A stretch of 64,000 bases of DNA from Spironucleus salmonicida (lineage: Eukaryota). The stretch lies in NCBI RefSeq assembly GCF_000497125.1, contig NC_090600.1, forward strand, positions 1,199,197 through 1,263,196, in the 5' to 3' direction. Below the pieces are notes generated by a model. It made no database searches. It was not told the DNA's origin and saw only the letters and a list, made by a program, of their open reading frames with translations. Made by a program: the position numbers and the translations under genes. Positions 29,291 to 54,518 of this stretch are shown piece after piece. Within the stretch, counting starts at the first letter, position 1, and every line of letters starts with the position of its first letter.

Positions 29291-30046
29291 TCACTTCACG
29301 CCATTTTCTCGCTTGAGGGCCTCGAACTCGCGCCGGAAGAAGTCCTGGAACTCCCTGCTGCCGGCCCCGCGGATCTCGTCGAAGTCGCCATCGAAGTGCC
29401 TGTCGAACCACTCCTTCCGCAGCACCCAGCCTATTTCCATCGGGATAGCGTTGGCGGCCATGTCGTCGGTGTTGATGTCGGCCTTGGCGGGGTAGGTCTT
29501 CTGGGTGAGGAGGTCGAACGCACAGTCATCGGCGTCGATGAGCAGGTTCACGCTGGAGAACTTGAGCGGGAGCAGCGGCTGTATCGCGCACGGCTCCAGG
29601 CGGAGGTCGCGCACCTCAAAGAGCGCGGCGTCCAGGAAGGCGAAGGTGCGGCCGAAGACGGAGTGCACGAGCGTGCGGCTGGCAGGCCGGAGCACGCAGA
29701 GCGGGGACAGCGCGAAGTCGCTCACGTCGAACACGGCGCCCTTCTGGTCGAGGAAGCAGAGCCGCGGGCCGTGGCGGAAGAGGGCGTTGTTGCCGTGTCT
29801 TCGCAGGCCCATGCGCACGCTGGGGGCGGGGGAGAACTCCAGGAGCTCGTGGGCGCACGCGGCGTAGAACCGGCCGCGGAGGCACACGGTCTGCGTGGTG
29901 ATGGAGAGGGGCGAGGTGGCGGAGACGAGCGAGGGCTGGGACGCGAGCACCTTGCCGTACACGTCGATGGTGGTGTCCCTGGAGGCGCCGGAGAGCTGGA
30001 AGCCCTCGGGGGCGTAGCGGAGAAAGTAGAGCGCGCCGGGGTCCAT
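29291..30046 (-). CDS. Hypothetical protein, 251 aa (copy 1)
   Basis: MDPGALYFLRYAPEGF...LKRENGVK-TGA. Third positions almost all G/C. It is the C-terminal part of the 704-aa shadow ORF. Confidence 0.75.
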   Translation of the reverse strand: MDPGALYFLRYAPEGFQLSGASRDTTIDVYGKVLASQPSLVSATSPLSITTQTVCLRGRFYAACAHELLEFSPAPSVRMGLRRHGNNALFRHGPRLCFLDQKGAVFDVSDFALSPLCVLRPASRTLVHSVFGRTFAFLDAALFEVRDLRLEPCAIQPLLPLKFSSVNLLIDADDCAFDLLTQKTYPAKADINTDDMAANAIPMEIGWVLRKEWFDRHFDGDFDEIRGAGSREFQDFFRREFEALKRENGVK

Positions 30047-30078
30047 GGTGGAGAGGTGGAAGGGAGGGCGATACAGGC

Positions 30079-31392
30079 TCACTCTACCGCGTACACCGCG
30101 AACGCGAAGGGCCCCAACGGCACGGTGCCGTCCATGGGCGGGGCGGGGTGCCCGAGGAGCTGCCGGACGGCCCCCTGCAGCCAGCCGGGCGCGAGGGCCA
30201 CCTGCAGGGCGTGGTCGCTCAGGTTGGCCAGCACGATGCGGCGCGCTGCCCCGGTCCAGAGGCCGCAGAAGACGTAGCGGTGCACGTCGGCCTGCGTGAA
30301 GGCGCCCTGGAAGGCGTTGTCGCGCAACAGCCGCAGCAGGCCCGCGTAGAACTCCTGCACCGCTGGGTCCGCGGCCTCCGGTACCGCACGCCGCAGCTGG
30401 ACCCCGAGCCTGCCCCGGCGCCCCTCGAGCTGCCCGTGCTGGAAGAAGCGCAGCCCCGGCCGGAGGTAGCACTACACCGCCGCCGGGAGCGCGTTGTGGA
30501 ACCGCGCGATGCGGGCCTCGTCGTGGTTCTCCAGGAAGTGGCAGCAGGCGGGCCCGCACCGCAGCCCCTGGGCGAAGCAGTCCTGCAGGGCCCCGCAGGT
30601 GTCCAGCGGCCGCTTGCAGTACACGAAGTCGAAGCCGCGCTCCACCAGCGCGTCCTCGGTGTCCCAGTAGGCCTCCGCGAGGAAGACGAAGTCGCGGTAG
30701 GTGCGCCGGAGCGCCGAGATGGCGTCGCGCCAGAAGTCGGGGATCTCGGTGCCCCAGATGGACCGGTGCACGTCGGGCAGCTGCAGCATCGCCATGTCGC
30801 AGCGCACGCCGTCGCACAGGCTGGCCACCTTGAACAGGTCCAGGCCGCGGGCCGCGCGGGTGTCGGGCCGCGTGAAGTCGAACTGGGCCGTGTCGCCCCA
30901 GATGTGGTAGCGGTCCCTCCCGAAGAAGACGCCCGAGGGGTGCTGGTCCGTCGCCGAGCCGAAGGGTCCCCGCAGGAACAGCTCCGGGCAGGCCGCGGCG
31001 CACTCGAGGGACCCGTGGTTCGGCACGAAGTCCAGCACGAGCCGCATCCCGCGCTGGTTGAGGCGCCGCTTGAGCCCGAGGAGCGCGGCGTCCGTGCCGA
31101 GGGCGGGGTTCGCCACGTAGGCCGCCACCGCGAAGGGGGAGCCGATGACGTCGGCGGGCTGCAGGTCCGGGAGTAGCTCGCGATACACACGCTGGCGCTC
31201 GGGCCGGAAGTCGCAGGCGAGCGAGGCGGCCCCGAGCGTCCACGCGCCGAGGAGGTACAGCATGTCGAAGCCGCGCGCCGCCAGGGAGTCCAGGAAGCCG
31301 TCGGGTATCGCGTCCAGACCGCGCAGGCCCTGCTCGTACAGGAAGGGGCGCGCCGGGAGCTGGTAGAGCGTCGGGTACCTTCTCCGCTCCAT
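30079..31392 (-). CDS. GH13 alpha-amylase-like glycoside hydrolase, 437 aa (copy 1)
   Basis: LVLDFVPNH, DGVRCDMA, FLAEAYW, FLENHDE catalytic regions. Reads through one TAG=Gln to TGA. Confidence 0.88.
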
Positions 31393-31442
31393 TCTGATTT
31401 GGCATAATATGCCCGAAACCGTATCCAAACTTAGTTGCTCAC

Positions 31443-31636
31443 TCACTCGTGGTGCAGCTGGAGCATGAGGCCGAGCATCGCGTTGCCCTGCTCATGCACC
31501 CTCGCGCAGAAGACCTCGAAGCCCTTCAGGTCGGCCTCGTCGATCATCTCAAGGCAGCTGTGCATGGCCAGCATCGGCAGGCCCATGTCCACAACCTTCA
31601 TGTCGCAGTCCGCCGCCACCAGGTTCCCGATCGTCC
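31443..31636 (-). pseudogene. 5'-truncated fragment of the M18 aminopeptidase gene (last ~63 codons)
   Basis: Matches 40083-40276. Upstream is unrelated AT-rich DNA with no peptidase N-terminus. Confidence 0.8.
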
Positions 31637-32302
31637 TCAGGCATATAAGAACATAATAGCATTAAATAGTTATAATAATGTGAAGTAAAATCTACCTACA
31701 GTTTTAATAAATTCTTCATATTTTATTTTGACTTTATGGATTTTATACATATTTTTCTTATTGTTACCGATAAAATATGATGGATAAAGCCAAAACGGAA
31801 GTAAGATAATGTTTACAATAAGAATTAATGTGTAACTATTTTATACCATTGAAGAAATATAATGTGTAAAATGTGTAGTGAAATATTAATAAACAGAAAA
31901 AATATTATAATACACAAAATGAACTGACAAAAAATTAAGGATCTCAATCAATTTTAAACATGAAAATAGTTTGGTTTAAAAACGGATATAGTATTGCAAG
32001 CAGTTATTAAATAATTTTTTATTATTTAAACACAAAACGTTATACTAATAATAGAGTACTATAACTATATCAAATATTATAAAAGTATCTTATTTCGTTT
32101 ATTTTCTACTGCTTTGTGATATAATTAAGATTTCTAGATAAAATTTTCAGAAAATTAACTGCTAGCTAATAATTTATGTTTATTTAAAAAGTTATTTACT
32201 ATTATATGAATTCTACTAAAGTTAGAAATAAATTATATTCAAATTACAATATATAATATATAGATTGTAAATTCAAAATTTAACCACTCCAGTTAGCAAA
32301 AT

Positions 32303-32779
32303 ATGCAGAAGAAACGTGCTATTGAGCCAGAACTTACTGAAGAGCAAAAACACGAAATCCGCGAGGCATTTGACCTTTTCGACGCTGATGGATCAGGCCG
32401 CATTGACGTCAAGGAGCTTAAAGTTGCTATGCGCGCTTTAGGTTTTGAGCCCAAACGCGATGAGCTCAAGCGCATGATTTCTGAGGTGGATTCATCCGGA
32501 AACGGAACGTTGGACTTGAACGATTTCTTTAGAATTATGACAGCCAAAATGGGCGAGCGCGACTCTCGCGAGGAGATTTTGAAAGCCTTCAGGCTGTTCG
32601 ACGAGGACGACACCGGTAAAATTTCGTTCAAAAACCTCAAGAGGGTGGCAAAGGAGTTGGGCGAAAACCTCTCAGACGAAGAAATCCAGGAGATGATAGA
32701 CGAAGCAGATCGCGACGGGGATGGCGAGATTAACGAAGAGGAATTTTTGAGGATCATGAGGAGAACCAGTTTGTACTGA
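32303..32779 (+). CDS. CETN: Centrin (caltractin), 158 aa
   Basis: [34 protein letters not shown]..., four EF-hands, ends RRTSLY. Confidence 0.96.
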
Positions 32780-32810
32780 TAAATTCTTTTAATTATGTAT
32801 AATAATTGCT

Positions 32811-34940
32811 TCACTCGCTTCCGTCCATATGCACTGTCATTCCCAACCCCTAATATACTACGCTAATACTAGCATTTTATAGTTCCATTTTATTTCCTTG
32901 CAAAACCTCACAGTCATTATCTGCATGCCGTGCAAGCATTTCTAAATTGCATATAGATAGAGTATGCACAAAATTTAAATCAAATTCGGCCACACAATCA
33001 GCTACTGAATTCTACCCGTCTAATGTTAGTTTAATCAGCCTCTATATGTTATAATATCCTAACTGAAATACTCGTTTCATTCGTTTCATAGAGGATTCGG
33101 AAACTGTCTTTCCGATGTTATTTGAAGGCAATAATGGATCAGCGATATTAACAGATCTAAACTAAAACGGCGGTTTTTGGTCCTAGAAAAATTTAATCAA
33201 TAATGCTGATCGAACAAATTCATCTAATGTCTTACTTAATGCTTATAAAAACTATGTGTTGCTTATATTCTCATCCTAAAGAATGATTTTTTCATCTAAA
33301 TATTAAAAAAACTCTTAACACTGAGCACTGTATTCCTACCTATTTTAATCAGATTTCTTATAATTTTATAAACAATTTTTTAATCCTTTTTATTCTAAAA
33401 TATTGCCATCGCTCGCGACACGCAAAGCAATTAAATGCTTAATCTCTTTTGCTAATTATAGCTCTTTATCATTGAATTTTTTATGTACAAATTATGACAC
33501 CTATTTATCAAAGAAACTTTAAGCAGTATCGCAGCTTTCAAAATCTTCTCTAGGAACTGCTCCAAAAATAGTTATCAAATTTTAGGAAAAATCAAAGGAA
33601 GAAAAATAAGCTAAAAATGCATATAGTGCTTATAATGGTGTTGTGATTTGAGATTGATGTAAGAGAATAAAAATAACTAGGGTACGTAATCCATAAGACG
33701 AAAGCATAAAATTATGAGATCCTAAAATATGTAGCTCGTTAATACAGTAACATTATATAAATACAAGTGAGCGTTTTAGTAAATGGTTTTTACCTATATA
33801 GTTATCTATTAATTCTAAAAAATACGCTGTTAATACACCAGCTGGTTAAGTAAATGAAATATCGAAACCCACATCCTGGTATGTGAATTTAATAACTGGG
33901 ACTTCTGCATCGATATGTACTAGATTTTATAGTTCAATTCCAGAAAGAACTTTTAATACTCGCCGAGCAGTCACTTGTTCCTCTTCATCCTTGTTCCAGC
34001 AGCAGAAATCTATATCAGAATTAAATAAATAGCAGTGAGATTGAAAAGACCCATATGGTAAAATAACCGCAGTCGGAAGCTCTTTTGTAATAAGACTTGC
34101 TAATTCTTAGAATAATGTTTACCTAGTACATTAAACTTTTGTAGATGGCCCAACTATAGATATAAGGTCATCAATTCGTTCTGTAATGTATTGCAGATTC
34201 TAAACTGACTTGATGTACACCATATTTGCATCAGATTTTTGCATCTATCGAAGTGGAAGTGAGAATAAAATAGAATACTAAATATTATATAAAAATCACC
34301 ACTTATCATATTCGTCCACCCCAATTACAAATAATTTCTTAAAAGCATTAACTCTACCAGCATCAATCAATTTTGCAATAACGTTAACAACAAAATCAGC
34401 CTTGTCATGGTTCGGGGTTATCTTGCATACATCTAAAGTGCACTCTACGTATTCTTCCTCTTGGTAATCCAAATAATCATCATAGTTACATAAAGAAAGA
34501 TCGTCAAAATCACCTATACTAGTAATCTCAGATTCAGAAGCAAAAATAGAATCTTATTCTGATGATTCAGATATTTCATCTGCTTTTTCAATAATAAGAT
34601 GTACTTCAGCTTTCCTAGCTTACGTTTCATTCTTAAGTGCATTTTGTACTTCTATATCATGACCTAGAAGTTCTCTCAATTTGTCTATTATCATATTTTT
34701 ATCATTACTTGGCGTAGCTTAAACTTATGTTTACTGTATTTTTTTAAGAGCAGGTGGTGGAATATTAATCTTATTCATATATGATGTGTAAATTTTTGAC
34801 TCATGTTATAAATACTATAAGAAGACGGATTGTGCTTAATTTACTGGTAATTTAGCTTACTATAATAATTATGGTATATCACTTAGTTTTTACGTTCTAG
34901 AAATTTTTATTTTTTTATTATCTTGTTCAAACCAGCTCAT
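32811..34940 (-). CDS. Non-canonical poly(A) polymerase / nucleotidyltransferase (Trf4/PAP-associated-like), 709 aa
   Basis: YGSFQSHCYLFNSDIDF (GS...DxD motif) and NIADPLLPSNNIGKTVS. Confidence 0.78.
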
Positions 34941-35104
34941 TTTATTTTAGTAAATTCTGTTAATAGTATATAATATTGTAATTTAAAGTATAATTATATA
35001 TTGCTTTAAATAATAATATGTATTGAGTTTATCGGGCAAAATACTTAATTTAATATATTTATTATTGATTTAATGTTCGATTAATTCCACTCCTCCACTT
35101 CTTA

Positions 35105-36466
35105 ATGTTCTCTATAAACGATGATTCAGCTAACTTCCCTAATTTTGATTCAATTTAAGACCATGGAAGCTCATTTCTTCCGTTTGATAGCCAAATGGTA
35201 TAATCCCAACCTTAAATTACCACATTACGTTCTTCTCAAAAATTTTCCCTAACAAGTAGTCCTGATAAAATTCAAACAAATTAAGTCCCACCTAATCAGG
35301 TTCAATATTTAATGGCGAATTTAGTTAGCGCTGGATGCTCAAACTAATCAAGAAAAGTTTAAGATTTAGTAGATTTATTGGCTTAGAATGGTTAAAATGA
35401 TATTATTGATAGAGCTGTTCAATAGCATTTAGGGACACTTCATAATCTTATCACAGATAAATATGGTAATTATTTGATGCAATTATTAATTAAGCATTCG
35501 TCTCCGGACGTATTTTAAAATATTATTGCGTTAATTGAACACAATATTTTAGAATATTCATTCAATTAATTTTCTTGCAGAGTTGTTTAAGCTGTCACTG
35601 ATAGATGTATTTCCTTAAATATTTCCTATTTTGTTTTAAAAGTTTTTGATACTTTAGTATAAACCTAATAATTAACAACTCGTTCATTAAATTCATAATT
35701 TGCCAGCCATATTGTACTTCTTACACTTAATTCTATCCCATATTAAGATTAAGAAAAGATGTTTATATTCGCTGCATAAGATTTTTTAAATATAGCAAAA
35801 GATTAATATGGTTGCCGTATACTTGAGTATGTTTATAAATTTGTTTAAGATGCATTATCTGCAGTTTATGTTGAGGCATTATTTTAATTATTAAGTACTA
35901 ATGTACTACATTTATCAGATAATAGATATGGAAATTATCTTGTGTAGGCTGTTCTTAAAAACCAATTTTATTAAGTAAATAATTATTTAGAAAATATTAT
36001 GTAAGTATTAATGGATAGCTTTAGAACTCTTTCATAATCAAAATTTGGGTCTAATATTTGTGAGTGTGTCGTATAGCTTTGTGACATTTAAAGTCTTGTT
36101 AGATTAATTTCAAATTGTAATTTTGAAGAACTTATTAAAGACTAATATGGAAATTTCGTCACTTAAGTGTTTATTTAGAGAATGTCAGATTTCTCATTAA
36201 AGTGTTAATGCCCAGTATGTTGTATTAAACTTTAGGAATCATTAGAGTATTCTCATGACGTAGAAATGGATCAAATCAATATAGCCTTACCAATAGACTC
36301 AGATGTGATCTGTACGATGGAGCTTTTTAGAAAGTTTTGCTGCTTTATCAAGGGAGTTCTTGATATAGTACCATCTATTCATGTTTAAAGATCTATTTAG
36401 CGTTCTTTTGATTTCCATGACCTTGAAGTTTGTTCATTTGATGAATTTCGTGAACTCATCTTGTGA
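35105..36466 (+). CDS. Pumilio/PUF RNA-binding protein, 453 aa
   Basis: Repeats DKYGNYLMQ, NQFSCRVVQ, DQYGCRILE, NRYGNYLVQ, SKFGSNICE, DQYGNFVTQ. Confidence 0.88.
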
Positions 36467-36548
36467 GTGAGTGTGTAACCTAACATTTTATAGTTACTAA
36501 TATTATTTATAGTATAATTTCATTTATATTTGATTTTCACTCCTTAAG

Positions 36549-37970
36549 ATGTCTATAACAGAAGGAAAAGTAACATTAAATACTGACGTCGCATTTTACA
36601 ATGAAACATAAGTGTTTAACCGTGATTTCTCTGTCCTTGCCATTTCAACTTTTTTTGATCATTTTAAACCCAGAACATAAAACTAAGAATTAACGCTCCT
36701 TGATGCACTTTCAGCATCTGGACTTCGCGCACTAAGATATGCCGCGGAAATACCGCATGATATAAAAATTACTGCTAATGATATATCATTAGCAGCGACA
36801 GTCCAAATCAAAGAAAATGCAATTTTAAATGCCAAAACTCTTTAAATTTAACATTCAGATGCAAATCTATTTATGTATAATAATCCATGCTAGTTTTCAT
36901 GTATTGATATTGACCCATACGGCCATCCCACTCCATTTTTAGACTCCGCAATTAAAGCTGCTGCGCATGATGCACTGCTCTGTGTGACAGCTACTGATTC
37001 TCTTGTTACTTGCGGACGCCAACCTGAAGAGTGTCTTAGACGTTATAATTCACTTCCTGGAAACTCTGTTTTCGGGCACGAAGCTAGCGTTAGAATCGTC
37101 ATTGCAAGTATCGCAGAAACTGCTGCACGACAGCGTTGTGGAATTGATGTTTTATGCGCTTTTTATCAATTTCATTATTTACGCGTTTTCGTAAAATTAG
37201 ACAAAAAACGTTCTCGTGGTGTTGAAATGATTCAAAATTTGGCAGAAATTAACTATTGCGGGAAGTGCTAAAGCATGAATTTTGGCAGAAAAGTTGGCAG
37301 AATTTTTGCGTCTTAGACTGTAGAAAATTGTGAATTTTGCTATTAAAAACTTAAAGTTTGTGGGCCAATATGGTGCGGCGAAATTGGTAATAAATAGTTT
37401 TTAACACAAATAAATGATAATCTCGAAAAATTTCCATTATTGAATCAAATTTCAAGAATAAGTGCGCATGTAAAGTTCCAGCTTTTGGACTATGACAAGA
37501 CTCCACTTTTTTACGATCTAACAGAGATTTCAAAATACTTGAAAGTCACATGTCCTCCGATGTCGATTTTTGTTAATTTTTGCAGCTAAATTAATGTTGA
37601 AGTTAGTCCTACATGTTATTCTTCTAATGGATTTAAATGTAGCTATGATAGCTTTTAAAAAGTTCGTGACATCCTGAATTTATGGTTTAGATTGATGAAA
37701 AAAGGAGGGAAAAGTAAAAAAGAGTGGGAAGGAAAGGAGTGCGAAATTCTATTTTTGCATAGTGTTTAAGATCTTGAAAAGTTAATGAAAAAAGCAGGAT
37801 TTAATTCTGAATTAATTGAAAATTTTATAAAAGATAACTATTAAGAGTTTGTAAAAGAAGGGGGATTGCAGTATTAAAAAGAATTTACTGGGGAATGGGC
37901 AATTAGTAGTTAGTTGGGGCTCTTTAAAGGCAATCCTGGTAAAAATTGGGGGCCGAAGAAGATGAAGTGA
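36549..37970 (+). CDS. TRM1: tRNA (guanine-N2,N2)-dimethyltransferase, 473 aa
   Basis: AFYNETQVFNRDFSV, LDALSASGLRALRYA, IDIDPYG, C-terminal NWGP. Confidence 0.92.
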
Positions 37971-38312
37971 AAATTTGTAATGGGTTTAGTATAATATAAC
38001 ATTAACTCTTTACAAACAATCGAAAAATTAGACCGCTTATATAGTTCGAATTTTTATATAAAATAATACTCATATATATTTTTAAAAACTTTCATAATAG
38101 TAATATGTATAAATGTATATATATAAATAATTAATAGATTATGATAGTTTGCCTACTTAATCAATATAATATATTAACAAAGATTGTTAATTTCCATTCA
38201 CAGTATAAGTTTATTCAAACTAAGAATACTGTAATAAAATTGAGGCAGATGCTTTTGATATCAGAATAAATCAAATTGCCCTAACTCAAAAATTAAAGTA
38301 AAGTTTTGAAAT

Positions 38313-38633
38313 TCACATCTAACTAGAGTAGTAGTTCGTTTTTTGCTGTAGACGTTACAGACGTTCTTGGTCCAGTTACTCCCGTCTTGATTTATGAGAT
38401 TAGAATTTTGGATCTTCTTTGATAGAAGATACAATTTATTACCTTGGTTTCTTTATTTCTGGGGTGTCGTATGAGGCGTATGTAAGTGCTGAATATTTAA
38501 TTTTTTTAGGCTATAATGAATGGTAAGTTTATGATGTGATTGGAGTCATTTAATGATTACGATTGGGATTTGGTAATTTCATGTTATCTAGAATCCGTAG
38601 GATCTCTTTAGGGCCTTGTTTCAAAGTTGACAT
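38313..38633 (-). CDS. Small hypothetical protein, 106 aa
   Basis: MSTLKQGPKEILRILDNM...YYSSQM-TGA. Confidence 0.5.
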
Positions 38634-38953
38634 TTGAGGTTTGTCAATATTACGGTATAGGTTTTTATATAATTATATTCTTAATATTACATGACTTTAT
38701 TAATCTTTTGATAATTTTACTAAAAATAAGATAATGTATATTAAGAAAATTGCATAAAAATATAATTATATAATAATGATAAAGTATTAATAAATACTAT
38801 ATAAAAGATAAAAGCATTACAGGTTTGTTTTCCATACACTAAAGCAGTCTTAGTTGATATTTTAATGTATCTAGGTGAGATAGTGAATAATCAAACTATA
38901 CAATTAAATAACTATTATATATGTTAATTTAATAAGTAAATTCAGTTTCACAA

Positions 38954-40276
38954 ATGCTTACTTTTGAAGAATTTATAAGCGCTTCCCCATCACCTTATCA
39001 TTCGGTTAAAACAGCAGTGGATATGCTTGTATCTGCTGGTTTTAAACATATCAGAGAGTCTGAAGTTATACCATCTAATACTCCTTGTGTATATACTAGA
39101 GATGGTACTGCTGTTATTGGTTGGATACCAGGAACTGATTTTACTAGTGGTTTTACTTCAGTATAGTCTCATACTGATTCTCCTTGCCTTAGATTTGTGT
39201 AAAGCGGTGCTATAAAAGCTTTTGGTACTCTTATGTCAATTCCTGTTGAGCCTTACTCAGGATTGGTTGTTGGAAGATTTATTGATAGAAAATTGAGAGT
39301 TGGTGGTAGAATTTCTTATATAGTTGAAAAAGATGGTAAATTCATCCCTGCTTCTATTTTAGTTAAATCTGAGGGTGAATTTGTTATTCCAGGCCTTGCT
39401 CCTCACATGCTTCGTAATCCTGGAGATCCCAAAGATTGGATCCCAGAAGGTGATGATTTTGTTCTTTGTTGCCCTAAAACCGTTACAATCAATGGAAAAC
39501 AAATTGAAGTAAAAGAAAAAGCAACAATGAATGATCTATTTGCTCCCCTTCTCCCAGTAGGAGCTATTATTTCAGCTACTTAAATTGATATATCAGCAAT
39601 TGAATTCAACCGTTATGGGTCTCTCATTTAAGCACCTAGAATTGATAATCTAGCTTCTCTTTATGGATCTGTTGTTGGATTAATTAATTCTTTCAAAAAT
39701 ATTCCCACGTAGGCTAGCACGCGTATGATAGCTGGCTTTAATCATGAAGAGATTGGTTCTAGAACTCGTTCTGGGGCAGCTGGCATAGGCCTCCATGATT
39801 GGTGGTTAAGAGTTTGTTAACTTCCTTCTGATATTGCTATTGCAGCTATGCATAAATCTCTAAATATTAGTGCTGATGGGGCTCATGCTAATCATCCTGC
39901 TAAAGGTGCCTCTTCATGTCATGACCCAATACCTGTTCTTGGTAGTGGTGTTTGTCTTAAGTTTGGCTAAAAGTAGAATTATGCATTCACTGATAATCTT
40001 TCAGCAGTTGTTATCGCTATTGCTAAAAATGCTGGTGTTTCGACTTAAAAGTGGGTCGGTAAGTCATTCAAGGCCGGGGGCGGGACGATCGGGAACCTGG
40101 TGGCGGCGGACTGCGACATGAAGGTTGTGGACATGGGCCTGCCGATGCTGGCCATGCACAGCTGCCTTGAGATGATCGACGAGGCCGACCTGAAGGGCTT
40201 CGAGGTCTTCTGCGCGAGGGTGCATGAGCAGGGCAACGCGATGCTCGGCCTCATGCTCCAGCTGCACCACGAGTGA
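38954..40276 (+). CDS. M18 aspartyl aminopeptidase, 440 aa
   Basis: SPSPYH, SHTDSP, RIDNL, FNHEEIGS, SADGAHANHP, GGTIG, DMGLPMLAMHS. Last ~63 codons lie inside repeat copy 2. Confidence 0.92.
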
Positions 40277-40326
40277 GTGAGCAACTAAGTTTGGATACGG
40301 TTTCGGGCATATTATGCCAAATCAGA

Positions 40327-41640
40327 ATGGAGCGGAGAAGGTACCCGACGCTCTACCAGCTCCCGGCGCGCCCCTTCCTGTACGAGCAGGGCCTGCGCGG
40401 TCTGGACGCGATACCCGACGGCTTCCTGGACTCCCTGGCGGCGCGCGGCTTCGACATGCTGTACCTCCTCGGCGCGTGGACGCTCGGGGCCGCCTCGCTC
40501 GCCTGCGACTTCCGGCCCGAGCGCCAGCGTGTGTACCGCGAGCTACTCCCGGACCTGCAGCCCGCCGACGTCATCGGCTCCCCCTTCGCGGTGGCGGCCT
40601 ACGTGGCGAACCCCGCCCTCGGCACGGACGCCGCGCTCCTCGGGCTCAAGCGGCGCCTCAACCAGCGCGGGATGCGGCTCGTGCTGGACTTCGTGCCGAA
40701 CCACGGGTCCCTCGAGTGCGCCGCGGCCTGCCCGGAGCTGTTCCTGCGGGGACCCTTCGGCTCGGCGACGGACCAGCACCCCTCGGGCGTCTTCTTCGGG
40801 AGGGACCGCTACCACATCTGGGGCGACACGGCCCAGTTCGACTTCACGCGGCCCGACACCCGCGCGGCCCGCGGCCTGGACCTGTTCAAGGTGGCCAGCC
40901 TGTGCGACGGCGTGCGCTGCGACATGGCGATGCTGCAGCTGCCCGACGTGCACCGGTCCATCTGGGGCACCGAGATCCCCGACTTCTGGCGCGACGCCAT
41001 CTCGGCGCTCCGGCGCACCTACCGCGACTTCGTCTTCCTCGCGGAGGCCTACTGGGACACCGAGGACGCGCTGGTGGAACGCGGCTTCGACTTCGTGTAC
41101 TGCAAGCGGCCGCTGGACACCTGCGGGGCCCTGCAGGACTGCTTCGCCCAGGGGCTGCGGTGCGGGCCCGCCTGCTGCCACTTCCTGGAGAACCACGACG
41201 AGGCCCGCATCGCGCGGTTCCACAACGCGCTCCCGGCGGCGGTGTAGTGCTACCTCCGGCCGGGGCTGCGCTTCTTCCAGCACGGGCAGCTCGAGGGGCG
41301 CCGGGGCAGGCTCGGGGTCCAGCTGCGGCGTGCGGTACCGGAGGCCGCGGACCCAGCGGTGCAGGAGTTCTACGCGGGCCTGCTGCGGCTGTTGCGCGAC
41401 AACGCCTTCCAGGGCGCCTTCACGCAGGCCGACGTGCACCGCTACGTCTTCTGCGGCCTCTGGACCGGGGCAGCGCGCCGCATCGTGCTGGCCAACCTGA
41501 GCGACCACGCCCTGCAGGTGGCCCTCGCGCCCGGCTGGCTGCAGGGGGCCGTCCGGCAGCTCCTCGGGCACCCCGCCCCGCCCATGGACGGCACCGTGCC
41601 GTTGGGGCCCTTCGCGTTCGCGGTGTACGCGGTAGAGTGA
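40327..41640 (+). CDS. GH13 alpha-amylase-like glycoside hydrolase, 437 aa (copy 2)
   Basis: MERRRYPTLYQL..., same GH13 motifs. TAG at 41245-41247 read as Gln joins ORF-track pieces 40273-41247 and 41359-41640. Confidence 0.88.
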
Positions 41641-41672
41641 GCCTGTATCGCCCTCCCTTCCACCTCTCCACC

Positions 41673-42428
41673 ATGGACCCCGGCGCGCTCTACTTTCTCC
41701 GCTACGCCCCCGAGGGCTTCCAGCTCTCCGGCGCCTCCAGGGACACCACCATCGACGTGTACGGCAAGGTGCTCGCGTCCCAGCCCTCGCTCGTCTCCGC
41801 CACCTCGCCCCTCTCCATCACCACGCAGACCGTGTGCCTCCGCGGCCGGTTCTACGCCGCGTGCGCCCACGAGCTCCTGGAGTTCTCCCCCGCCCCCAGC
41901 GTGCGCATGGGCCTGCGAAGACACGGCAACAACGCCCTCTTCCGCCACGGCCCGCGGCTCTGCTTCCTCGACCAGAAGGGCGCCGTGTTCGACGTGAGCG
42001 ACTTCGCGCTGTCCCCGCTCTGCGTGCTCCGGCCTGCCAGCCGCACGCTCGTGCACTCCGTCTTCGGCCGCACCTTCGCCTTCCTGGACGCCGCGCTCTT
42101 TGAGGTGCGCGACCTCCGCCTGGAGCCGTGCGCGATACAGCCGCTGCTCCCGCTCAAGTTCTCCAGCGTGAACCTGCTCATCGACGCCGATGACTGTGCG
42201 TTCGACCTCCTCACCCAGAAGGCCTACCCCGCCAAGGCCGACATCAACACCGACGACATGGCCGCCAACGCTATCCCGATGGAAATAGGCTGGGTGCTGC
42301 GGAAGGAGTGGTTCGACAGGCACTTCGATGGCGACTTCGACGAGATCCGCGGGGCCGGCAGCAGGGAGTTCCAGGACTTCTTCCGGCGCGAGTTCGAGGC
42401 CCTCAAGCGAGAAAATGGCGTGAAGTGA
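41673..42428 (+). CDS. Hypothetical protein, 251 aa (copy 2)
   Basis: As copy 1, with one aa difference (QKAYP vs QKTYP). Confidence 0.75.
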   Translation: MDPGALYFLRYAPEGFQLSGASRDTTIDVYGKVLASQPSLVSATSPLSITTQTVCLRGRFYAACAHELLEFSPAPSVRMGLRRHGNNALFRHGPRLCFLDQKGAVFDVSDFALSPLCVLRPASRTLVHSVFGRTFAFLDAALFEVRDLRLEPCAIQPLLPLKFSSVNLLIDADDCAFDLLTQKAYPAKADINTDDMAANAIPMEIGWVLRKEWFDRHFDGDFDEIRGAGSREFQDFFRREFEALKRENGVK

Positions 42429-42619
42429 GAATAGTAATATAATCTTCTAACCCCAATAAATTTGATAGTAGACTTAAAGCTAAGTTAATTATGTAAATTA
42501 GATATATTAATAAACTGATGTTGTTAACAGTCTATAATTATTCATATGTAAATCTACTGGATTAAATTTGTGATGATAAATATTATATATTGTATTATTA
42601 ATAACTAAAAGAATAAATA

Positions 42620-51175: not shown

Positions 51176-51511
51176 GGTATGTTTTCACTTAGGAACTGCG
51201 CAAGGGTTTCCAGGTATCACGCTAGAGGCGAAATATGACTACGTGATCCCGACAACAGCGCCCGCAGAAATTTCATGGCACCCTGCATCTTTGCTGGCCT
51301 GGCTGCGCAACTCATGCCGCCCTCCTATATCGTACGCTGCCCTGCACTCGTCCACAATTTCCATCTGCCACCTGCCCACGCTATGCAATACCCTGCTGCG
51401 CTGCCAGGATGCTGCCACTTTCCGGGCAGGCGCCGCTCGCTGCCACCACAGCGTTAAACCTGGCCGGCCAGCTAATGCCCACACTAGGTGCCATACACTT
51501 ATCGTTACCAT

Positions 51512-51585
51512 GCTCCTGTGGCGTAATTGGATAGCGCACTTGACTACGGATCAAGGGGCTGCAAGTTCAAGTCTTGCCAGGTGCA
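51512..51585 (+). tRNA. tRNA-Arg(ACG), copy 1
   Basis: Cloverleaf: acceptor GCTCCTG/CAGGTGC, D-arm TGGCGTAATTGGATAGCGC, anticodon arm CTTGA-CTACGGA-TCAAG, T-arm GCAAG-TTCAAGT-CTTGC. Followed by a T5 tract. Confidence 0.93.
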
Positions 51586-52414
51586 AATTTTTCATCCGAG
51601 GATATGGTCTATCTAATAATAATGAGATGCAGTATTTACGCTTCTAGATGATATAGAGTCCTACATATCGATTCTTCGCTGTCCCTGAGTACAAGTGTCT
51701 CTAGTCATCCTATATAGGTAGTAAACACAGAGTGGTTCTAGTTTGTCAAAAACCAAAGAACACGCCGTTTAAAATGTCCAGTGTACTCCCTATAAAATCA
51801 CTTCTGGTTTTGGATGTTTAGTATTTTGGGGTTATATACTAAGAAGAATATTTTAAGTTGAAAGACATCGAAATTTATATTTTACTTTTATTTTAGTGCT
51901 TTTGCTGCTAACTGATAATTTATATTGCTTATGATATACATATTCTAAGCATATCTAACTAACTGTTTAAGATGATATTGTTATTAATATTACAGCAACA
52001 TGCTTTGATTCTTTATAGACTGAGACTATTAATTGACCAGTACGATGTATGAATTACCTTAGTTATTAATATTTCCATGCCAAAAAATTTAGTAAAATAA
52101 TAAATTTAAATTATTATATTTTCTGCTAATTTTAAAGTGCTTAAAATTCAAATTTCGCCCAATAATATTTATTCTCCTTCATAATCAGGAGCTGTTGTGA
52201 TTTCTGCAATTTTGCGATTCACAGTTCTCGCAGATACATTCCAAGTGCACCCCACGGTCATTTTTCTTCGTCGCCGAAACCAACCAAATATTATTTTCTG
52301 ACTTGCCGCGGTATCGCAGGCCACCCAAAATCTGGTTTTTTGCTAAGGAGACGCAGATTTGGCTTCCGCTCCATTTCCACAAAAACTCACTTTACGAACC
52401 TGCGAGCAACTAAA

Positions 52415-53878: not shown

Positions 53879-54436
53879 TGAATTGTAAATTTTTATAATT
53901 AATAATGTGTTTAAAGGTAATATGATATCAAAATAACTTATTTTGTAGTAGATATAGTGTTTAGCTAACTATGTAACAAAATTATATTATTATAATATGT
54001 AATTATATGTTAAAGTAAAATTAAGTTTGAACTAGTTAATATTTCCTTTGAACATTTATAGTCATATATCAGTTGTAAGCAAGGCTGAAGTACAAAAGTA
54101 AATTTTTAAACTAAGTAATGGATTATGAATTTTATAAAAATATTGAATTAACCACACTAATTAAGAACTTTAGTTGGCGTAACTTATATTATGACAATGC
54201 TAGCTTCTATATTATTATATACCAAAAGATTTATTTAATTCTTTGTGTTACATTTCTAGTAAACAATACTATATAAAACTTAGTGATTAGTAATAATAGG
54301 TAAGATAAAGTATGGTTTAAAGCTTCTATTTATCTTACGAAGAATTGGTTCCATGTTCTGCTCCTTGTATACTTGAGGCGAATTTCTATATTCTACAAGT
54401 TAAAAAATATTATTATAGATACATTATTATGAATAT

Positions 54437-54510
54437 GCTCCTGTGGCGTAATTGGATAGCGCACTTGACTACGGATCAAGGGGCTGCAAGTTCAAGTCTT
54501 GCCAGGTGCA
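54437..54510 (+). tRNA. tRNA-Arg(ACG), copy 2
   Basis: Identical to 51512-51585. Followed by AATTTTT. Confidence 0.93.
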
Positions 54511-54518
54511 AATTTTTA

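Follow-up and report, generated by a model that had tools for sequence, protein, structure and literature searches.

A GC step inside a native M18 aminopeptidase gene at the edge of an inverted repeat in Spironucleus salmonicida

Anatomy of the inverted repeat and the GC-rich island

The window analysed here, a stretch of 64,000 nt of contig NC_090600.1 (S. salmonicida assembly GCF_000497125.1), carries compact, intron-free genes. As far as the available text of the published descriptions goes, it resembles the genome of this species in its genetic code, with TGA as the sole stop codon, in the addition of poly(A) 13 nt past the stop and in a GC content near 30%. Within it, two inverted copies of a GC-rich segment are separated by an AT-rich spacer, and one of the copies includes the 3′ end of an M18 aminopeptidase gene. 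The features of the locus are the following (coordinates are those of the window).

29291..31636, minus strand: left arm of the inverted repeat, with 3 mismatches to the right arm; its flanks are loose ends at 40083 and 42428 in runs X1 and X3
29291..30046, minus strand: left copy of ORF3, with Thr instead of Ala at codon 184
30079..31392, minus strand: left copy of the GH13 gene, encoding the same protein (arm comparison)
31443..31636, minus strand: left-arm copy of the M18 tail, headless (no 5′ part) and with no in-frame start nearby
31637..40082, no strand: AT-rich spacer of 8446 nt with genes for centrin-like EF-hand, poly(A)-polymerase-like, PUF and TRM1 proteins and the 5′ part of the M18 gene (Pfam)
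38954..40276, plus strand: M18 (aspartyl-type) aminopeptidase gene, 440 codons and TGA, with TAA and TAG read as Gln; Pfam PF02127
38954..40066, plus strand: AT regime of the M18 gene, codons 1–371, GC3 0.18, nine TAR-Gln codons
40067..40276, plus strand: GC regime of the M18 gene, codons 372–440 and the stop, GC3 0.96; its first 16 nt lie outside the repeat
40083..42428, plus strand: right arm of the inverted repeat, ~72% GC; assembled as one unitig of 2346 nt in the DNA runs X1 and X3
40327..41640, plus strand: right copy of the GH13 (alpha-amylase family) gene, 437 codons; PF00128; bacterial relatives
41673..42428, plus strand: right copy of ORF3, an orphan of 251 aa, GC1/2/3 ~0.64/0.44/0.94; the arm ends with its TGA

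The two arms, each 2346 nt long, differ at three positions (29497/42222, 30640/41079 and 31183/40536; 99.87% identity), all of them G/A or C/T pairs, and their comparison placed the start of the right arm at 40083, where the sequence-only reading had put it. The GC-rich island itself spans 40067–42428 (2.36 kb, ~72% GC), and everything but its first 16 nt is present a second time, inverted, 8.4 kb away. Its coding content consists of the last 69 codons of the M18 gene, the GH13 gene and the orphan ORF3. GH13 and ORF3 are intact in the left arm too, and its copy of the M18 tail adjoins unrelated AT-rich DNA, the left flank beyond 31636 having no similarity to M18. Both the spacer and the flanks encode ordinary eukaryotic proteins (IFT57 and centrin-like EF-hand, poly(A)-polymerase-like, PUF and TRM1 proteins by Pfam).

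Apart from the switch within the M18 gene, composition changes at 42421–42430, 29292–29310 and 31641–31646, compared with repeat ends at 42428, 29291 and 31636, respectively: three of the four island edges agree with the repeat ends within ~20 nt, and the fourth lies 16–34 nt outside the repeat. The sequence-only reading had taken this offset, which it put at ~16 bp, as a sign that the repeat once extended further; that suggestion found no support in the flanks past both repeat ends, which, when compared, scored no higher than shuffled controls and keep no relic of a longer repeat. The intergenic stretches in the arm, 84 nt in total, have a GC content of 0.42 (50 nt) and 0.62 (34 nt), and nearby AT-rich bins of 200 nt lie at ~0.18–0.25.

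The two ends of the spacer adjoin the same repeat end. An exchange between the arms could therefore turn the 8.4-kb spacer around without disrupting the M18 frame; in short-read graphs the two orientations are indistinguishable.

The composition step within the M18 gene

With TAA and TAG read as glutamine, positions 38954–40276 form a single open frame. The encoded protein matches PF02127 with 203.1 bits (cut-off 24), its residues 7–414 aligning with profile positions 1–422 out of 432, and H73, D75, D231, E265, E266, D308 and H402 are invariant in all eight aligned sequences. We take these conserved His, Asp and Glu columns to be the di-metal site; H402 is located in the GC-rich tail. The score against NCBIfam NF002759, the bacterial M18 equivalog, was 251.7 bits and hence below the cut-off of 356, and by these profile scores the protein is predicted to be a member of the family rather than the bacterial equivalog.

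The gene was initially described as using A/T-ending codons and TAA-Gln up to ~40066 and G/C-ending codons from there on, with conserved motifs running continuously across the switch, and this description proved accurate. The last of the nine TAR-Gln codons is a TAA at 40046; GC3 rises from 0.18 in codons 1–371 to 0.96 in codons 372–440, where only three of the 69 codons end in A or T. GC1/GC2 amount to 0.49/0.45 in the former and 0.67/0.32 in the latter, with GC12 at ~0.5 in both. Of these motifs, GGGTIGN spans the edge of the repeat and DMGLPMLAMHS is encoded within the arm; the frame is kept in both. For comparison, ORFs of at least 150 aa outside the arms reach a GC3 of at most 0.69 in the window, and long native-looking ones range from 0.15 to 0.34.

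A model with two regimes of codon composition fits the M18 gene better than a single regime by ~80 log-likelihood units (−165.5 versus −245.9). The best change points fall at codon 366 (nt 40049) and codon 372 (nt 40067), which places the switch at 40049–40067, i.e. 16–34 nt ahead of the repeat start at 40083. All ten top cuts lie within codons 363–374, and a cut at the repeat start itself (codon 377/378) is worse by at least 3.9 units. The intragenic composition step is thereby confirmed as real.

Sequencing runs that cover the junction and the repeat

The stretch is present in eight sequencing runs from two studies. In the DNA runs X1 and X3, the repeat forms a separate unitig of 2346 nt, both flanks of each arm are loose ends, and a further unitig of 8506 nt comprises the spacer and, on either side, 30 nt from one and the same end of the repeat; this is the unitig graph of a two-copy inverted repeat. 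The depth of the repeat unitig was 0.82 of that of the flanks in X1, a shortfall probably due to GC bias, and 16.4 versus 8.6–11.8 for the flanks in X3. Since the unitig over 40049–40112 is unbranched, there is no third copy with that junction.

Single contigs of the second study cross both the M18 switch and the repeat start with no other letters (38969–40281 in X5 and 38971–40239 in X6). Past 42428, other X5 and X6 contigs continue into the left-arm flank for 13 nt and then into an A-run and adapter-like letters, and it is because of these loose ends that the two runs look RNA-derived. Stretches uncovered in them (e.g. 40282–40327) and the depths of their contigs carry no evidential weight. 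Both alleles at 42222 are found in X6. Given that the contigs bridge the two regimes unbroken, the M18 step can be due neither to misassembly or contamination nor to expression-driven codon bias, and the assertion of the sequence-only reading that the high GC is not driven by expression stands.

Ancestry of the two parts of the M18 gene

The best named relative of the whole M18 protein is that of Hexamita inflata (48% identity); two further sequences follow at 47% and 41%, and bacterial ones reach at most 35%. When the protein is split at codon 372, both parts find the same three best partners, the 5′ part at 45–48% and the tail at 50–54% identity. The sequence-only reading had regarded the gene as native and proposed separate phylogenies of its two parts, and these bear it out: a clade of five diplomonad-type sequences is recovered with an SH-aLRT of 100 in the 5′ tree (385 columns) and again with an SH-aLRT of 99 in the 3′ tree (56 columns), the tail grouping with no other (e.g. 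bacterial) lineage. Within this clade, the tail falls outside the other four sequences (SH-aLRT 95), whereas the 5′ part falls inside P0004, a difference that would amount to a weak discordance on few columns. The share of Gly, Ala, Arg and Pro (GARP) in the tail, 0.25, compares with 0.21–0.23 in the AT-rich relatives and 0.29–0.32 in P0004, i.e. there is no GC-type amino-acid shift.

Ortholog DNA was available from one source, a distant metagenome sequence (L081; 45% protein identity, TAR read as Gln) whose contig ends with the gene and which was the one relative obtained in the metagenome scan. Its GC3 averages 0.45, with bins between 0.10 and 0.65 and the last three at 0.55–0.65; in this one distant ortholog outside such a repeat there is no comparable step, in keeping with what had been anticipated of orthologs lacking the duplication. 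Among prokaryote genomes, the 75-aa M18 tail gave 339 pattern matches, not one of which was confirmed, and a homolog search with residues 366–440 returned the query alone among 30 candidates, an outcome that reflects the limit of the word index and is not evidence. The earlier contention that the high GC cannot be the composition of a foreign donor is hence upheld as regards a bacterial source, the tail being diplomonad-type, but does not extend to a donor inside the diplomonad-type M18 clade, which is weighed below.

The GH13 gene and the orphan ORF3

The GH13 protein matches PF00128 over a short stretch only (25.6 bits, cut-off 22) and has 5115 relatives at E ≤ 0.001, the best 120 of which are all bacterial, with 36–45% identity. 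Its terminal branch measures 2.32 against a median of 0.31, i.e. seven times the median. All 13 sequences compared share D199, E240, H290 and D291, and the conserved Asp/Glu/Asp columns are presumably catalytic. Judging from these comparisons, GH13 is a very divergent, long-diverged gene of bacterial type. Its residue changes relative to the relatives number 39 up and 38 down, with no shift toward AT-type residues. GC1/2/3 is 0.73/0.48/0.97, and the choice within G/C-ending codons resembles that of eight high-GC bacterial GH13 genes, a likeness that does not discriminate between the readings discussed below. Among 80 bacterial GH13 loci, none has a relative of M18 or ORF3 within 4 kb.

The gene holds one in-frame TAG (Gln), at 41245–41247 and, in the left arm, at 30472–30474; it is the sole TAG in the island, is the same in both arms and lies one C-to-T step from CAG. 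A gene caller using table 11 would break GH13 at this codon.

ORF3 has strong coding periodicity and contig cover, and its arm copies are on record as separate proteins. No full-length relative was found among 1.84 billion representatives, no Pfam or NCBIfam family matched, and atlas matches scored at most 0.85 and belonged to no family. The representative search gave nine weak matches, each over ~30 N-terminal residues; of the five that were scanned, four are WD40-repeat proteins and one is of the SpaA type. Considering how weak and short these matches are, we draw no function for ORF3 from them.

Origin of the GC-rich island

Sharp GC shifts from ~30% to almost 70% were described on S. salmonicida contigs by Andersson et al. 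in 2007 (PMC1805757). According to the available text of that survey, they include native genes, the high-GC3 genes are mostly native, and the authors, who found that neither mutation nor selection easily accounts for the shifts, left them unexplained and called them a 'peculiar phenomenon'; the GC-rich segments are described there without reference to duplication. With its sharp transition between a ~30% GC genome and a ~72% GC island that takes in part of a native gene, our window is similar to these segments. In the 2022 assembly (PMC9509377), duplicated regions (at least 2 kb, at least 95% identity) have a mean GC of 44.7%, compared with 30.7% in the rest, and the accessible portions of that paper mention gene conversion solely in connection with the surface-protein repertoire. 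Within the available text of the two papers, the GC shifts and the GC content of duplicated regions are not linked through biased conversion, and no intragenic switch at a repeat edge is described. In the library that we searched, no paper joins Spironucleus with biased gene conversion, and the papers retrieved on GC richness and codon usage in the genus do not bear on this topic.

We favour the reading that the island became GC-rich where it stands, through GC-biased gene conversion between the arms. On an AT-rich native chromosome of a hexamitine diplomonad, recurrent conversion of one arm by the other, with a preference for G/C in mismatch repair, would have driven nearly all freely variable sites of the arms to G or C and left the unique 5′ part of the M18 gene at the AT-rich level of the genome. 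Our inference is that the arms convert each other often, with a bias towards GC, and that the composition arose in this way. We regard this as the best reading of the locus and give it about an even chance (roughly 0.5). It accounts for the coextension of island and repeat, for the purely synonymous shift in the constrained M18 tail, for the pronounced GC-type composition of ORF3, which is under weak constraint, and for a long-diverged GH13 without a shift toward AT-type residues. The wider claim, that conversion between as few as two copies drives synonymous GC from ~0.2 to ~0.96 and is a general cause of GC islands, is put forward tentatively.

The distribution of the remaining A/T-ending codons and the sites that differ between the arms are also consistent with conversion. 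Of the 124 codons that lie no more than 200 nt from an arm end, 10 end in A/T, and beyond 800 nt the counts are between 2 of 126 and 3 of 115; the successive 200-nt classes from the nearest arm end have 8.1, 6.9, 3.1, 2.5, 1.6 and 2.6%. Since conversion should be less frequent close to the edges of a repeat, the gradient fits. It has a Mann–Whitney p of 0.002 overall and of 0.20 in GH13 alone, distance being confounded with gene identity. Furthermore, all three arm mismatches are of the G/A or C/T kind and the TAG is a single C-to-T change away from CAG, which fits AT-biased mutation acting on a tract that is kept GC-rich.

Several observations count against conversion. The switch lies 16–34 nt beyond the repeat without any relic of a longer one, and the intergenic stretches of the arm are well under GC3, although a role as promoter or poly(A) sites may constrain them. 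There is no GC-ward amino-acid bias in either the M18 tail (GARP) or GH13 (39 up, 38 down), and an A/T allele, the TAG, is fixed in both arms. With two copies alone, a very strong repair bias would probably be needed to reach a GC3 of 0.96. The near-identity of the arms, which differ at only 3 of 2346 positions, would also fit a recent duplication of DNA that was already GC-rich. Strong GC-biased conversion between the arms, as it was first proposed from the sequence, stands as the best available cause, with the overshoot of the island and the lower intergenic GC weighing on the other side.

The island may instead have arisen before the repeat, through another regional process or through conversion with copies since lost, and most of it would then have been copied in inverted orientation recently, so that the match between island and repeat reflects the extent of copying and not the cause of the GC-richness. 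We consider this unlikely, even though the overshoot of 16–34 nt, the 99.87% identity of the arms and the absence of any trace of a longer repeat in the flanks all speak for it, as do the GC-rich segments presented with no mention of duplication in the available text of the 2007 survey (PMC1805757). The breakpoint of the duplication would have to match the distal end of the island within a few nucleotides, a composition step inside a run of codons is left without a cause, the unbranched unitig over 40049–40112 leaves no third copy with the junction, and the edge gradient of A/T-ending codons is not predicted.

A donor among GC-rich relatives with an M18 of the diplomonad type, whose DNA replaced the resident 3′ end at GGGTIGN and was then partly duplicated, is in our view rather improbable. 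It would be in line with the sharpness of both island ends, with the want of a relative of GH13 and ORF3 in the sampled diplomonads and with P0004, which shows that the M18 clade has a member rich in Ala, Arg, Gly and Pro; the position of the tail outside the other four sequences in the 3′ tree and that of the 5′ part inside P0004 in the 5′ tree point the same way. However, neither such a donor nor such a block was found, the metagenome scan having yielded one relative, which lacks the step, and the amino-acid make-up of the tail is like that of the AT-rich relatives and unlike that of P0004. Homology at the crossover would be low, and the contig ends, with 13 nt before the A-run, fit the host pattern in the accessible part of PMC1805757, where poly(A) follows at a mean of 13.2 nt.

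A recent transfer of the whole island, M18 tail included, as an operon fragment from a high-GC bacterium is largely refuted and very improbable. The bacterial nearest relatives of GH13, its codon usage and the tight packing of the genes are what such a transfer would lead one to expect, but the M18 tail belongs with diplomonad-type sequences and not with bacteria, ORF3 has no full-length relative among the representatives searched, none of the 80 bacterial GH13 loci has M18 or ORF3 company within 4 kb, the best identity of GH13 is just 45% on a branch seven times the median, the gene carries an in-frame TAG, and the prokaryote scan with the M18 tail pattern found nothing. That the step is an artefact of chimeric assembly or contamination, or a product of codon selection for expression, is scarcely credible: a 72% GC block in a ~30% GC genome has the classic look of contamination and the repeat depth in X1 is below that of its flanks, but the stretch occurs in runs of two studies, the unitigs form the graph of an inverted repeat, with a raised depth in X3, contigs cross the junction in frame, and one bridging contig carries both regimes, which leaves no expression difference between them.

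Related systems and implications

The closest parallel to GC-biased conversion as we envisage it here is Fxy (Mid1) at the mouse pseudoautosomal boundary, where the part of the gene that lies in the highly recombining segment is far GC-richer, a difference attributed to GC-biased gene conversion. As in the M18 gene, there is one gene with two compositions, and the GC-rich part lies in a recombining segment. In Fxy, however, conversion takes place in meiosis with the allelic X/Y copy as partner, whereas here a paralogous arm in inverted orientation would take that role, in a protist not observed to undergo sex; moreover, introns and amino acids are also shifted in Fxy and the shift is smaller, whereas that of the M18 tail is almost purely synonymous, from a GC3 of 0.18 to one of 0.96.

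Converting duplicates are known from the palindrome arms of sex chromosomes, histone, Hsp70 and rDNA genes, yeast and Arabidopsis duplicates and plastid inverted repeats, and they are homogenised and GC-richer than single-copy DNA. The GC effects reported for them are of a few percent to moderate size, compared with ~72% GC in a ~30% GC genome at this locus. We know of no other two-copy repeat at ~72% GC in a ~30% GC genome with an edge inside a coding frame. On the conversion reading, the locus would be a striking and unusually clean new case of the GC enrichment seen in converting duplicates, and it bears on a puzzle already in print.

What sets it apart is that one native gene, unbroken in single contigs, has both compositions and changes from one to the other at the edge of a repeat. 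For that gene, the change can no longer be put down to expression, gene age or bacterial origin, and the published puzzle of the GC shifts thereby becomes a testable claim on conversion bias. An intragenic GC switch at the edge of a duplication may help to explain the GC-rich islands of AT-rich diplomonad genomes. Should the conversion reading be true, conversion would be the general cause of the GC islands noted since 2007, such islands would mark recombining DNA, and screens for gene transfer based on composition would be unreliable in these genomes. The M18 gene would then represent a natural experiment with treated and untreated parts in one mRNA, and the island would point to highly active homologous repair in an organism in which sex has not been observed.

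Further features of the window

The three genes of the island all end in AG-TGA (at 40274–40276, 41638–41640 and 42426–42428), with an A two bases before the stop, which matches the termination-site preference of S. salmonicida given in the available text of PMC1805757. The centrin-like EF-hand gene of the spacer (32303–32779) has a GC3 of 0.59, the highest among the clearly native genes here, and no TAR codons; its GC3 is consistent with the published codon selection in highly expressed genes. The sole other repeat of at least 60 nt in the window is a direct repeat of 94 nt that contains two identical tRNA-Arg(ACG) genes, at 51511–51586 and 54436–54511, which lie 2925 nt apart.
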